From: Dehalococcoidia bacterium
GTDB taxonomy: Bacteria; Chloroflexota; Dehalococcoidia; Bin125
NCBI GenBank assembly: GCA_965200625.1
Contig: OZ241375.1
Span: forward strand, 2,344,078-2,408,077
DNA: 64,000 nt
Reading direction: 5' to 3'
Position numbers and translations under genes: made by a program
In this document: one piece after another, positions 37,781 through 56,570 of the stretch
Layout: every line of letters begins with the position of its first letter
How positions within the stretch are numbered: the stretch's first letter is position 1
The notes under the pieces: generated by a model
Database searches by the model: none
What the model saw: the letters and a program-made list of their open reading frames with translations, nothing else
Told to the model about the DNA's origin: nothing

Positions 37781-37940
37781 ACCCGGCGTATCCGCTCCAC
37801 CCCGCTCAAGCCCCCACTTTACCAGTCTGTCGCCAGCCGGGCGCAGATTGATCGGCCGTGGGGGCGGGATCAGCGCCCGCGCAGGCGTTAGACTAACCTC
37901 GATGTAGTTCCGCGTATGCGTCGCAGAGGGGATCCGCCAG

Positions 37941-39116
<1,176 letters not shown>

Positions 39117-39309
39117 GCCGTACCGCTCACGCCCGTCCGGGCCGCGACCGTCATCCCATCGCCCCGCTGACAGCTGTCGGCGGGGCGCTCTTCGTTTGCC
39201 GCCGCGGGGCGCGTTCAGCGTCGTAACAGATGTGCGGAACCTCACCGCCTGGGCGGGCGTCTCTGTAGGAGGGCGCTAGACTAGTACCCTTAATCGAGGG
39301 GAGCCTCAT

Positions 39310-48948: not shown

Positions 48949-50383
48949 CGCCGCCGCCCGAGTCGCGGTGGCGGCGCTCCTCGCCGCTCTGTTCGCCGCG
49001 CTGCTCACCGCCTGCAGCGGCGCGGAACCGCAGCAGAGTCAGCCCCAGGCTGCCTCGCCCGCCGCTGACCAGCAGACCGAAGCGCAACAACAGGTGCAGA
49101 CGACCAGCGCCCAACCCGACCAGCCGCAGCGCCCCGCGTCGAGCGCCGAGCAGCAGCAAGCATCCACCGCCGCGCCCGCTCAAGCGCAAGCCGCCCAGTC
49201 CCGCGCTGATCCACCAGATCAACCAGCGACACAACAGCGGCAGGATCAAGCGCAGCAACCGCAACAGGAACAAGAGGCAGAGCCCGCGCAACAGGGAGCG
49301 GCGACCGCGCCGACTGGCTCAGGCGACGTGGCGCTGGCGGGAGAACCGATTCTCGGCGGCTATCAGTTCCAGCAGCCGATCGAGATGCTGGCTTTGCCGG
49401 ACGGGTCGTTCCTGGTCGCCGAGCAGCGCGGCTACATCACGCGGTTCATTGACAGCGGCGCCGAGATTGAGCAGATCGGCGTCCTCGACCTGACCGAATC
49501 CGTCAACTTCGGCGGCGAGCAGGGGCTGCTCAGCATCGCCCTTGACCCCTACCTGGAGCAGGCGCCCTACCTCTACGTCTACTACTCACCGCGCGGCGCG
49601 AGCGTGACCCGCCTCTCCCGCTTCCGCTTCATTCAGGGCGTCGCCCTCAGCGCGTCGGAGTTGATCATCCTTGAAGTCAGCCAGCCGTACGCCAACCACA
49701 ACGGCGGCGCGGTGCGCTTTGGCCCCGACGGGATGCTCTATCTCGGCCTCGGCGACGGCGGCGCCGCCAACGATCCGCAGGGGCACGGCCAGAACCGCGA
49801 GACGTTGCTGGGCGCAATCATCCGCATTGACGTTCACGACATCGACACGGCCACGACCTACCGCGTCCCGCCCGACAATCCCTTCCTCGGCATCGCCGGC
49901 GTGCGCCCCGAAATCTGGGCGTACGGGCTGCGCAACCCGTGGCGCATGGCGTTCGACCGCGCCACCGGCGACCTCTGGGTCGGCGACGTGGGCCAGAATC
50001 AGCTCGAGGAGGTCGCGATCGTCGCCGCCGGCGAGAATCACGGCTGGAACGTCTTCGAGGGCAGCGCCTGCTTCCGCTCCGCGGAGGCGTGCGAGGCGCT
50101 GCCCGAGGCCGTCGCGCCCATCGCGGAGTACACCCACGCCGACGGCTGCTCGGTGACCGGCGGCGAGGTCTACCGCGGCCGCGCGATGCCCCAGCTGGCT
50201 GGCCGCTACGTCTTCGGCGACTACTGCTCAAGCAGGATCTGGAGCGTCACGGCCGCCGGCGACGTGGTCGAGCATCTTCAGATCCGGGAACGCATCGCCT
50301 CCTTCGCACGGGACGCGGACGGCGAGCTCTACGTCCTCACCTTCAACGGACCGATTCGCAAACTCGTCCCCGCCGCGCGTTAG
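48932..50383 (+). CDS. Glucose/sorbosone dehydrogenase family (PQQ-dependent) lipoprotein with Gln-rich linker
   Basis: LLTAC lipobox, EQGLLSIA, NHNGGAVRFGPDGMLY, YGLRNPWR. Confidence 0.9.
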   Translation: MNRLPSAAARVAVAALLAALFAALLTACSGAEPQQSQPQAASPAADQQTEAQQQVQTTSAQPDQPQRPASSAEQQQASTAAPAQAQAAQSRADPPDQPATQQRQDQAQQPQQEQEAEPAQQGAATAPTGSGDVALAGEPILGGYQFQQPIEMLALPDGSFLVAEQRGYITRFIDSGAEIEQIGVLDLTESVNFGGEQGLLSIALDPYLEQAPYLYVYYSPRGASVTRLSRFRFIQGVALSASELIILEVSQPYANHNGGAVRFGPDGMLYLGLGDGGAANDPQGHGQNRETLLGAIIRIDVHDIDTATTYRVPPDNPFLGIAGVRPEIWAYGLRNPWRMAFDRATGDLWVGDVGQNQLEEVAIVAAGENHGWNVFEGSACFRSAEACEALPEAVAPIAEYTHADGCSVTGGEVYRGRAMPQLAGRYVFGDYCSSRIWSVTAAGDVVEHLQIRERIASFARDADGELYVLTFNGPIRKLVPAAR

Positions 50384-50412
50384 CCTGCATCGACAGGGAA
50401 ACGAGCTGACCG

Positions 50413-51918
50413 ATGACTACCTCCCGCGCGTTTGGCCGCACCCCCGCGCCCGACGTTCCCAACGGCATGACCTGGCTCAACACCGGCCGCGAGCTGTCGA
50501 TGGCCGACTTCCGCGGCCGCCTGCTGATCCTGCACTTCTGGACCTACGCTTGAATCAACTGTCTGCATGTCCTTCCGCAGTTGCGGAAGCTCGAACGCCG
50601 CTACGCCGACACCCTCCAGGTTGTCTCCGTCCACTCGCCCAAGTTCCCCACCGAGCGCGAGACCGAGAACCTGCGCCAGGCGATCCTGCGCCTGCGGATT
50701 GAGCATCCGGTGCTCAACGACGCCGACTTCAAGTACTGGCAAACCTTCGGCGCGCGCGCCTGGCCGACGCTTTTTTTCATCGACCCGAACGGTAACGTGA
50801 TCGGCATGCATGAGGGCGAGCTCACCGAAGACATGGCCGCGCCGCTGATCGACGGCTGGCTGGCCGAGTACGAGGCCGAGCAGCTGCTTTCCCGCCAGAA
50901 TCTCGGCCTCGTCCGCGAGACCGGCCGCGAGAGCGCCCTCTCTTTCCCCGGCAAGGTCGCCTGGGACGACGACTCGGGCCGCCTCGTCGTCGCCGACAGC
51001 AACAACGACCGCATCATCGTCGCCGATCTGGACGGCAACGTGGATCAGGTGATCGGCGGTTCCGCCGCCGGCTTCCGCGACGGCGCGGCCGCGGCGGCGC
51101 AGTTCAACCAGCCGCAGGGCGTCGTCGTCCACGACGGCCAGATCTTCGTCGCCGACAACGAGAACCACGCCGTGCGCCGGATCGATCTGAGCGACGGCAG
51201 CGTCAGCACGATCGCCGGCACCGGCGAGCAGGCGCGCTCGATGCCCGCCGGCGAGCCAGCCCGCCGCACCGCGCTCAGCTCCCCCTGGGATGTCGCCGTG
51301 CACGGCGGCAATCTCTATATCGCCATGGCCGGCATTCACCAGATCTGGCGGCTGCCCCTCGGCGATCAGCACGGGGACGGCTCCTACGTCGGACCGTGGG
51401 GCGGTTCCGGCCGCGAGGGGATCGTTGACGGCCCGCGAATGCGCGCAGAGCTGGCGCAGGTCTCCGGCCTCGCGCCGGGCCCGATCGGCCTCGCCTTCGC
51501 CGACTCCGAATCGAGCGGCGTGCGCGAGGTGAGCTGGGATCCCGACGGACAGGTGACCACCTTCATCGGCAAGACGGGGCAGGGTGGACTCTTCCACTTC
51601 GGCGACGCCGACGGCGGCCGCGCCGTCGCGCGGCTCCAGCATCCGCTCGATGTCGCCCGCGTCGGGGACGAGCTCTACGTCGCCGACACCTTCAACCACA
51701 AGATCAAGCAGGTCTTCCCGCACACCGAGAACGTCAACACGCTCGTCGGCGGCCACGGCGACGCGGTCGGCAGCTTCAGCGAACTCCAGCTCGACGAGCC
51801 CGGCGGTCTGACCAACGGCCCCGGCCGCTCCCTGCTCGTCGCCGACACCAACAACCACCGCATCCTGCTACTCGACCTCGACACCCGTCAAGGCCGCGAG
51901 ATCGCGCTCCGCTTATGA
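50413..51918 (+). CDS. Thioredoxin-like plus NHL-repeat protein, probable selenoprotein (in-frame TGA at 50551-50553)
   Basis: WLNT..LSMADFRGRLLILHFWTYA-U-INCLHV continues in frame into VHSPKF, AWPT and NHL repeats. Confidence 0.85.
50572..50589 (+). promoter_or_regulatory. Candidate bacterial SECIS hairpin
   Basis: cttccgc-agtt-gcggaag; 25 nt between the TGA and the loop. Confidence 0.65.
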
Positions 51919-55397: not shown

Positions 55398-56570
55398 CTA
55401 CAGCGGCTCCAGGTCTTCATTGAGGATGTCGATGTACGCCGGATAGGAGTAGAGCCGATTGCGCCGCCGCCCAGTGATTTCCCGGGCGAGCCCCAGCTCA
55501 ACGAGTCGCTGGACCGCACCAGAAGCGCTGGGGGTGGAGATGCCCGCGTCGTTGGCCAGTCCTCGAATCGAGTGAATGGGCCGTTGGGCAAGCGCATAGT
55601 GGACGGCCTGCGCGCTGGCATTGCGCTTGAGTGAACGCTGGATTGTCCTGCGATCGGCAGCGACGCGATCGGAGAGGCGGCGCGCCATATCGGCGGCGGT
55701 CTCGGCGGTGCTGCGCACGCCGTCAACAAAGAAGTCGAGCCAGGTTTCCCACGCTCCCCGGGTCCGAACGGCCTCAAGCAGATAGTAATAGGTGCTGCGA
55801 TGCTGTTTGAGGTAGAGGCTGAGGTAGAGAATCGGGTTGTGGAGCACCTGCTCACGGTGCAGCATGAGCGAAATCAGCAGCCGCCCAAGTCGGCCGTTGC
55901 CATCGAGGAAGGGGTGAATCGACTCGAATTGGACGTGCGCCAGGCCGGCCTTGATGATTGTCGGCGTATGGGGATCGAGGGCGTTGATGTAGCTCGTCAG
56001 CGCCTGCATTGCGGCCGGCACCTCCGCGGGCGGCGGCGGAACATAATCGGCATAGGCGGGGTGCCGCCCGTTGATCCAATTCAGGCGCGACCGCAGTTGT
56101 CCCGGTTCCTTGTCGCTGCCGCGGGCGGACTGCATCAGGATCCCGTGAGCCCGGCAGAGCAGCTCTGCGTCGATGGACGAACCGGCACCGAGCTCGTTGA
56201 CCGCGTAGTTGAGCGCGTTCACGTAATTCGAGACTTCCACGACGTCATCAACGGGGACGCCGGACGGATCGTCGAGTTCATAGAGCAGCAAATCGGAGAT
56301 CGATGAGCGTGTCCCTTCAATCTGGGAAGAGAGCACGGCCTCGCGGCGAATGAAGGAGTAGAGGAACAGATCGGCGTCCGGCAGCAGGTTGGAGGCCGCG
56401 TCCAAACGGCCCAGCGCAGTCTGTGCTTGGGCGATCAGCGGAACGAGCGGCGCGAGCTCCAGCGGAGGAAACGGGGGCAGCTCTTCGGGGATGAAGGCGT
56501 CCACCATCGCCCCCTCAAAGTCGGTCGGTACCGAAATGCCTGTTCGTGATCGTTCCAACGCGTCAGTCAC
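55398..56570 (-). CDS. Fic family protein (class II) with C-terminal HTH
   Basis: HPFLDGNGRLGR; inhibitory SSQIEG; ITGRRRNRLYSY. Confidence 0.93.
   Translation of the reverse strand: MTDALERSRTGISVPTDFEGAMVDAFIPEELPPFPPLELAPLVPLIAQAQTALGRLDAASNLLPDADLFLYSFIRREAVLSSQIEGTRSSISDLLLYELDDPSGVPVDDVVEVSNYVNALNYAVNELGAGSSIDAELLCRAHGILMQSARGSDKEPGQLRSRLNWINGRHPAYADYVPPPPAEVPAAMQALTSYINALDPHTPTIIKAGLAHVQFESIHPFLDGNGRLGRLLISLMLHREQVLHNPILYLSLYLKQHRSTYYYLLEAVRTRGAWETWLDFFVDGVRSTAETAADMARRLSDRVAADRRTIQRSLKRNASAQAVHYALAQRPIHSIRGLANDAGISTPSASGAVQRLVELGLAREITGRRRNRLYSYPAYIDILNEDLEPL

Follow-up and report, generated by a model that had tools for sequence, protein, structure and literature searches.

Human NHLRC2, the FINCA disease protein (Protein Data Bank (PDB) entry 6GC1), and the lumenal region of Arabidopsis SOQ1 (PDB 7DJJ and 7DJK) belong to a family in which a thioredoxin-like (Trx-like) domain of the Trx8 type, with its conserved cis-proline, directly precedes a six-bladed NHL beta-propeller. 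Here we describe a gene of this type from a Dehalococcoidia bacterium (assembly GCA_965200625.1), located at positions 50413..51918 on the plus strand of a 64,000-nucleotide (nt) stretch of contig OZ241375.1 (the window) and carrying an in-frame UGA at codon 47. We hold it very probable that the region is a single selenoprotein gene, in which this UGA is recoded as selenocysteine (Sec) by means of a hairpin that serves as selenocysteine insertion sequence (SECIS), yielding a 501-residue protein of the NHLRC2/SOQ1 type.

For NHLRC2, the redox motif CCINC has been placed at the N-terminus of helix α1, beside the propeller 'cup'. The propeller is found in each of the 284 Trx8 proteins that have a CC(I/V)NC motif, and no conserved operon was reported for seven bacteria (PMC6107167). 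The same paper describes the NHLRC2 Trx-like domain as inactive in the classical insulin assay and the biochemical function of NHLRC2 as unknown, and the word selenocysteine is absent from its available text. In SOQ1, C431-C434 form the Trx-like redox pair, from which electrons go on to a Cys pair of a C-terminal domain; the lumenal domains have methionine-sulfoxide reductase (MSR) activity for which that C-terminal Cys pair is required, and SOQ1 is also inactive in the insulin assay (bioRxiv 10.1101/2024.11.01.621559). A third relative is the C-terminal Trx-like domain of Mycobacterium tuberculosis DipZ (PDB 2HYX and 5CYY). Trx-fold selenoproteins with a UxxC motif, where U is Sec, have been catalogued as the 'Thiol-disulfide isomerase-like' (PF13905/cd02966), 'Prx-like' (PF00578) and 'Redoxin family' (PF08534) groups (PMC13188914, PMC9312934).

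Gene anatomy and predicted fold

The gene comprises 501 codons, with Sec assigned to codon 47, followed by a TGA stop codon (51916..51918) that has no hairpin behind it. Inspection of codon 47 (TGA, 50551..50553) reveals the context LLILHFWTYA-TGA-INCLHVLPQLRK, beyond which 454 further codons remain open up to the terminal TGA. A preliminary description of the locus had proposed the ATG at 50413, a TGA at codon 47 in FWTYA-TGA-INC and 454 more residues, and both the sequence and its translation agree. Because an in-frame TGA (50407-50409) precedes it, ATG 50413 is the only possible start; a possible ribosome-binding site, AGGGA (50395..50399), lies 13 nt before the ATG and is weak, being read from the sequence only. 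Three codons past the UGA, TGT (50560..50562) encodes Cys50, the predicted resolving Cys of the UxxC motif, and all 52 distinct Sec forms, that is, orthologues with TGA in the codon-47 column, have an invariant Cys at this position.

Two domains are recognized in the product. The Trx-like (Trx8/TlpA-type) domain occupies residues ~23-138 (50479..50826) and exceeds the Pfam cut-offs for Thioredoxin_8 (PF13905, 46.3 bits against a cut-off of 27), AhpC-TSA (PF00578, 38.5 bits) and Redoxin (PF08534, 29.8 bits). The six-bladed NHL propeller covers residues ~179-496 (50947..51900; Pfam NHL, 90.6 bits). An AlphaFold2 model built with a 41-sequence alignment has a mean confidence (pLDDT) of 93.5 and a predicted template-modelling score (pTM) of 0.92; in it, U47 follows strand 37-43 and precedes helix 48-63, and each of the six propeller blades is made of four strands (24 in all). 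W117-P118, the conserved cis-proline, is invariant in the same alignment. No obvious signal peptide was seen by eye in the 501-residue product, and no NCBIfam model scored over its cut-off, the best being ResA (45.5 bits versus 170), with WAxxUGC_long at 21.2 versus 300.

Comparison with the described systems places the protein closest to SOQ1, with PDB 7DJJ as the best sequence match (E 8e-104, residues 10-497), and NHLRC2 follows with E 6.4e-101 over residues 12-493. Superposition of the whole model gives a TM score of 0.92 and a root-mean-square deviation (rmsd) of 2.0 Å for 7DJK, and TM scores of 0.90-0.91 with an rmsd of 2.5-2.8 Å and 40% identity for 6GC1. As in both relatives, a Trx8-type domain with its cis-proline stands directly before a six-bladed NHL propeller, and the redox pair C431-C434 of SOQ1 corresponds to U47-C50 here. 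The differences lie in the motif and at the termini. NHLRC2 carries C-C-I-N-C where the predicted protein has A-U-I-N-C, the second Cys being exchanged for Sec and the first for Ala. Although this departs from the letter of CC(I/V)NC, x-I-N-C and its position are kept, and the predicted A-U-I-N-C is a variant of that motif and not its absence. NHLRC2 has in addition a beta-stranded C-terminal domain and N-terminal helices, whereas the protein here stops after the propeller. SOQ1 is membrane-anchored and includes a HAD domain, a transmembrane helix and a C-terminal domain, all of which are missing here. Matches to SOQ1 end near residue 506 of the 667-residue construct, and no beta-stranded C-terminal domain with a Cys pair was found in the 501 residues, which end right after blade 6. 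Judged by these alignments, the protein is a predicted orthologue of human NHLRC2 and of the lumenal part of plant SOQ1, minus the C-terminal domain.

DipZ is a more partial match (E 5e-19, residues 11-139). Its motif SCINC represents the same x-C-I-N-C type of active site; in contrast to the protein here, it is a Cys protein without NHL propeller and is joined to a membrane electron-transfer module. With Sec assigned to the U-I-N-C motif of a PF13905 domain, the protein also has the defining traits of UxxC selenoproteins. A peroxiredoxin/AhpC identity was considered and rejected. The peroxidatic motif is PxxxTxxC/U, as cited in PMC13188914; here the segment reads L40-H-F-W-T44-Y-A-U47, with Thr at -3 and Leu at -7, and the best structural and sequence matches are of the Trx-like/TlpA type rather than peroxiredoxins.

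Conservation of the UGA and selenocysteine machinery

Genomes were searched with the read-through protein, written with C at residue 47 and with an artefactual C at residue 502 where the terminal stop had been read, and orthologue matches span residues 1-501 across the TGA. Every same-genus genome (24/24) has an orthologue with 84-89% identity and one TGA inside, two of them incomplete (one split over two contigs, one cut by a contig end). At class level, three of four orthologues (48-53% identity) carry a TGA and one does not. An even draw of 401 genomes from the phylum yielded an orthologue (E <= 1e-60) in 81, of which 62 have one TGA and 19 have none. In all 53 Sec-form loci examined the TGA occupies the same column, within [A/C/G]-U-I-N-C.

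Forms without the TGA identify the residue that is exchanged. Cys forms (loci L040, L052, L063 and L070 among them) have TGC in this column and read C-C-I-N-C, a distant paralogue reads T-C-V-N-C, and in the alignment with SOQ1 the partner of U47 is the second Cys of FWTYCCINC. The preliminary description had held that homologues reading FWTxCCINC put the TGA on the redox Cys; the alignments agree and specify the second Cys of CCINC. The residue before Sec (codon 46, 50548-50550) is Ala in every same-genus sequence, and among 28 distinct Sec forms from outside the genus it is Cys in 26 and Gly in two, while C-C is retained in Cys forms; from the aligned sequences, a protein with Sec thus seems able to do without the first Cys of CCINC. 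A quick tree of 75 of the 95 rows, with 20 same-genus rows left out, carries long-branch warnings and needs at least seven Sec/Cys changes, three of them forced by well-supported branches, so that Sec and Cys forms interleave.

Outside this sample, a scan of one genome per species for F-W-T-x-x-TGA-I-N-C found at least 119 stretches. Among the 80 matches listed, the genome labels include several Chloroflexota classes, Gemmatimonadota, Dormiibacterota, NC10/Methylomirabilota, Rokubacteria, Actinomycetota, Armatimonadota, Binatia, Planctomycetota, Acidobacteriota and Proteobacteria, and a Trx-like frame runs across the TGA in 79, the remaining one (L125) being apparently spurious. Five genomes from outside the phylum were checked. 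Four, with the labels Dormiibacterota, NC10, Actinomycetota and Gemmatimonas, have full-length TGA orthologues with 42-52% identity from residues 7-11 to 434-494; in the fifth, labelled Rokubacteria, the orthologue is fragmented.

Two loci met in these searches deserve separate mention. One Chloroflexota genome (G256) has the TGA orthologue in duplicate, the two copies scoring identically and lying inverted ~5 kb apart (C157:31301-32605, minus strand, and 37864-39168, plus strand). A possible double-Sec relative is a Trx-like match in a Rokubacteria genome (G440:C74:13737-14171, plus strand), which shares 40% identity with residues 11-156 and lies in an open frame of 696 codons containing two in-frame TGAs.

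The conservation of the N-terminal part bears on whether the TGA is instead a true stop, with the annotated 445-residue protein from TTG 50581 as the functional product and the 46 upstream codons separate or meaningless. This is what the conventional listing of open reading frames (ORFs) would suggest, 50581..51918 being the longest, and the public databases concur: the first 81 of the best 120 matches are 422-462 residues long, start after the TGA and cover 85-90% of the query. These entries, which include the window's own call and several named 'alkyl hydroperoxide reductase [Chloroflexi bacterium]', are without the N-terminus and the active site. Truncated calls are, however, expected because gene callers cannot read Sec, and the other 39 of the best 120 matches are 497-726 residues long, 33 of them with C-C-[IV]-N-C. 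The 46 upstream codons are kept in frame with 42-89% protein identity from the genus to other phyla and contribute strand β1 of the Trx fold together with its active-site turn; a product beginning at L57 would be without the redox motif, and its TTG start sits inside the conserved hairpin described below. A true stop is, on this evidence, very improbable.

The genome in question is a single contig of 2,740,738 bases (97.8% complete, 68% G+C) and encodes the whole Sec pathway. The program aragorn places a tRNA-SeC(tca) at genome positions 2414009-2414106 on the minus strand, ~6 kb past the window end, and the locus scores 70.2 bits with Rfam RF01852 against a gathering score of 47. Profile matches over the curated cut-offs were obtained for selA (527 bits), selB (345 bits, model positions 2-581 of 581) and selD (351 bits, with one in-frame TGA). 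The preliminary description had proposed a search for selA, selB, selC and selD as a check, and all four are present; it had likewise tied its case to the conservation of the TGA in relatives, which the searches above bear out. As an observation apart, selD (genome 158236-159177, minus strand) reads ARCGG-U-GSKFGPEG with a small hairpin 15 nt after its TGA, so SelD itself is predicted to be a selenoprotein here. Elsewhere in the genome TGA terminates 155 of 387 long frames with high G+C at third codon positions (GC3) and is therefore a normal stop in this organism.

The TGA itself was also checked in sequencing data, and assemblies of other runs carry it without differences. An 11,530-nt contig of a different study, which may be the source of this DNA, covers the TGA with 0 differences. 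Metatranscriptome run X6 contains a 1,744-nt contig from 50388 that spans both the ATG and the TGA, and run X7 an 808-nt contig (50005-50812) that bridges the upstream gene, this gene and the TGA, each again with 0 differences. The RNA-library contigs are consistent with expression of the gene and are no proof of it.

The hairpin downstream of the UGA

The candidate SECIS lies at 50572..50589, within codons 54-59 (L-P-Q-L-R-K), and its assignment draws on its fold, its covariation and the published bacterial model. Its stem pairs 50572-50578 with 50583-50589 around the loop AGUU at 50579-50582 (CTTCCGC / AGTT / GCGGAAG), as the preliminary description had noted when it pointed to a 7-bp stem with an AGUU loop 3' of the TGA. 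The published bacterial SECIS (bSECIS) model allows a loop of 3-9 nt, a stem of 4-16 bp, a G in the first two loop positions, 16-37 nt between UGA and loop, and a minimum free energy of at most -7.5 kcal/mol (PMC13188914, Fig. 2 legend). The hairpin begins 18 nt past the TGA and agrees with each of these: a 4-nt loop, a 7-bp stem, 25 nt to the loop, G then U at loop positions 2-3, and -10.4 kcal/mol when folded alone. The bSECISearch consensus and the E. coli fdh-type elements are similarly small in-ORF hairpins just past the UGA with G then U early in the loop; they differ in sequence, which is unrelated, and the element here is a minimal stem-loop (7 bp, tetraloop) with no bulged U in the fold. 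Small hairpins with G in the loop also follow the UGAs of the selD and UGSC genes of this genome, at 15-16 nt. Thermodynamic stability was not counted as evidence, and the case for a SECIS was built on comparative data.

Synonymous sites provide the first of these data. Across 52 distinct Sec-form sequences, 28 of them from outside the genus, the core codons at +8 to +11 after the UGA are nearly fixed (CCG in 51, CAG in 50, TTG in 51 and CGG in 52), with third-position entropies of 0-0.14 bits versus 0.5-1.7 bits at most neighbouring codons. A nearby Leu codon is CTG in 28, CTC in 9 and TTG in 5, and a nearby Arg codon CGC in 18, CGA in 16 and CGG in 4. The remark in the preliminary description that the hairpin uses codons rare for this genome holds as well, CTT and TTG accounting for 2.3% and 7.2% of Leu codons in the 387 long high-GC3 frames.

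Covariation was examined in an alignment of 53 sequences. Its score of 0.144, versus 0.077 when shuffled, was reached by 0 of 500 shuffles, and 90.6% of helix cells are paired versus 32-64% with slid partners. Stem pair 37-54 is CG in 36 sequences, UA in 9 and UG in 5, and pair 39-52 is UA in 42, GC in 3 and CG in 1. Distant genomes have further compensatory stems in the same place, such as CCUCAGUUGAGG, CCCCAGUUGGGG and GGCGCAGUUGCGCC, together with one shifted variant, CCAGAGC-UGGAC-GCUCUGG. At SECIS distance, a stem of at least 6 bp whose loop has a G near its start occurs at 65 of 80 TGA sites in other genomes versus 182 of 1600 shuffles, and an exact 12-mer recurs at 43 of those 80 sites. 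Conservation of the hairpin is thus far beyond chance, which its folding energy alone is not. A check proposed in the preliminary description, that of the hairpin as a SECIS, comes out in its favour, since the element both satisfies the published constraints and covaries.

These results decide against a nonsense mutation, a pseudogene or a sequencing error, with the hairpin a by-product of the conserved peptide PQLRK. Nothing but the bare presence of a stop codon and the unremarkable folding energy of the hairpin speaks for this explanation. But the same TGA column in 53 loci from many genera speaks for its rejection, as do the stretches in genomes of other species, of which there are at least 119, and the 0 differences in independent assemblies. 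Peptide conservation cannot explain rare codons fixed across the Sec forms (TTG in 51/52, CGG in 52/52) or the compensatory pairs, and the rest of the gene is intact, with the model confidence given above. Among the alternatives weighed, an accidental stop codon is the most far-fetched.

In the five Cys forms examined, no SECIS-type hairpin was found at this site; other codons are used there and the peptides are PALRR, PHLRR, PHLRK, AQLRV and PYVAA. This distribution bears on a further possibility, namely that the UGA is read through with another amino acid (Cys, Trp or another near-cognate), at least under the organism's conditions. The homologous residue is Cys and the presence of selenium is a prediction, both of which would suit such read-through. 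The genome nevertheless keeps a complete Sec pathway, the SECIS-type hairpin with its compensatory changes occurs precisely in TGA forms and is lost in Cys forms, and a global reassignment is excluded by the normal use of TGA as a stop. We therefore consider insertion of another amino acid hardly probable, and recoding as Sec by way of the hairpin remains the reading adopted here.

Given that the hairpin codes for the conserved peptide L-P-Q-L-R-K, RNA and protein constraints overlap in this segment. A SECIS at this place would fix the P-Q-L-R peptide and the rare codons in helix α1 of Sec forms, where Cys forms vary, and the gene would illustrate cleanly how an RNA signal can dictate the sequence of a protein.

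A second group of Trx-like loci with F-W-T-x-x-U-I-N-C was observed alongside (L079, L085, L096, L098, L115, L118, L119, L127, L139-L141, L149 and others). Their downstream peptide differs (IPSVREW / IPWVKEW...KY), and a different hairpin stands equally far downstream, as in AUUCCCUC-GGU-GAGGGAAU. This group possibly represents the Sec version of a different Trx-like family, perhaps one akin to DipZ; the 300-nt flanks do not show its architecture.

Several observations weigh against the selenoprotein assignment. The folding energy of a 66-nt segment is ordinary (z = +0.86), with 160 of 200 shuffles folding as well in this GC-rich sequence. The stem is imperfect in some relatives: pair 39-52 is unpaired in 6 of 52 distinct sequences, and an eighth, outermost pair is formed in just 23 of 52, so that the solid stem is 7 bp. 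By a simple test, no hairpin of at least 5 bp was present at 8 of 80 pattern-matched loci. No Rfam family matches the region, a scan of 50400-50750 giving only a chance long non-coding RNA (lncRNA) match (E 0.95), and no curated Rfam SECIS family covers the element in that scan. Co-occurrence with selA, read off by hand (61 of 62 TGA-form and 16 of 19 Cys-form genomes), is weakly informative and discriminates little, selA being as common as 308 of 401 in the sampled phylum genomes. As to the contigs from RNA libraries, this DNA possibly originated in the study that produced them, and they could be carried-over DNA. Neither NHLRC2 nor SOQ1 shows activity in the insulin assay, and the MSR activity of SOQ1 involves the C-terminal domain absent here. 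Finally, that the protein contains selenium is something we infer from its gene.

Proposed function, annotation and neighbouring genes

The preliminary description had proposed Sec insertion to give a 501-residue protein, which the machinery, the conserved TGA, the Cys pairing and the fit to the SECIS model support, insertion itself being the step deduced from them. In the mechanism we envisage, UGA codon 47 would be recoded during translation by the coding-region hairpin 18 nt downstream, which would bind SelB as a bacterial SECIS and so recruit SelB-GTP-Sec-tRNA(Sec), the Sec-tRNA(Sec) being made with the genome's own selA, selB, selC and selD. Sec47 and Cys50 would make up the UxxC redox centre, placed where helix α1 begins and facing the propeller, with Sec47 as the attacking nucleophile and Cys50 resolving to a selenenylsulfide. 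The propeller face probably holds a protein or peptide substrate. With the C-terminal domain missing, the Trx-like centre would have to act on its substrate directly, or else on a partner protein of its own.

Exchange of Cys for Sec is almost restricted to catalytic redox sites. For this reason the second Cys of CCINC would be the nucleophile of a real redox enzyme, and the relaxed first position of Sec forms (C, G or A) suggests that the first Cys is only auxiliary. In its broadest form, our proposal is that Sec orthologues of NHLRC2/SOQ1 make up a large and systematically mis-annotated family, undescribed as such in the literature searched, dominant over the Cys form in Chloroflexota, present in at least four other phyla and pointing to the second Cys of CCINC as a redox enzyme's nucleophile. 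This broader claim is tentative, and we rate its chances at slightly below even. If true, the Sec family bears on the unknown biochemistry of the FINCA disease protein NHLRC2 and adds a widespread two-domain architecture, a Trx-like UxxC domain with an NHL propeller, to the bacterial selenoproteome. The assignment would also correct an annotation error, that is to say the truncated public calls without the active site.

Novelty is limited by the catalogued UxxC families, which share the Pfam domains, the UxxC motif and the in-ORF SECIS; a scheme based on domain plus motif would bin the gene there. In contrast to the gene here, no NHL propeller and no NHLRC2 or SOQ1 is named for them in the texts searched, a comparison by description only. 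These families were defined largely from short metagenomic reads, and the gene may already sit unnoticed in one of them. 'NHL' is absent from the main text of the reviews PMC13188914 and PMC9312934, as far as these were available, and of the Sargasso Sea, GOS, Peng et al. 2016, BSepDB and deep-Sep papers. Full-text literature searches combining selenoprotein with NHL repeat, and NHLRC2 with selenocysteine, returned nothing relevant. The BSepDB supplementary file contains no NHL, Thioredoxin_8, PF13905 or cd02966, which says little, the file being possibly cut or differently organised.

Upstream, a dehydrogenase gene of the GSDH family (Pfam PF07995; 48893-50383) ends 29 nt before the ATG, and downstream, on the opposite strand, is a gene with a metallo-beta-lactamase fold. 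The preliminary description had identified the upstream gene as a 'PQQ dehydrogenase' possibly co-transcribed with the selenoprotein gene; its position and GSDH family assignment stand, and the link proves confined to the genus. A GSDH homologue flanks the orthologue at 23 of 26 same-genus loci versus 1 of 37 outside the genus, that one being weak. A conserved functional or operon link was accordingly rejected, adjacency being local to the genus. At the junction of the two genes, X6 contigs end at 50370 and start at 50388 and the X7 contig bridges the gap; contigs can show neither where transcripts end nor that a stretch is one transcript.

A few kb downstream, and unrelated to the selenoprotein gene, window positions 55398-56570 (minus strand) encode a Fic/DOC-family protein (Fic_N + Fic). 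Long tRNA calls made by aragorn elsewhere in the genome comprise tRNA-Ala(ggc) of 96 and 83 nt and tRNA-Pro(ggg) of 86 nt, at 550490-550585, 1867362-1867444 and 1200458-1200543, which may be false positives or interrupted tRNAs. The stretch 49900-51918 was found in runs labelled sponge metagenome, two metatranscriptome libraries included, and the organism is therefore probably a sponge-associated Chloroflexota bacterium.

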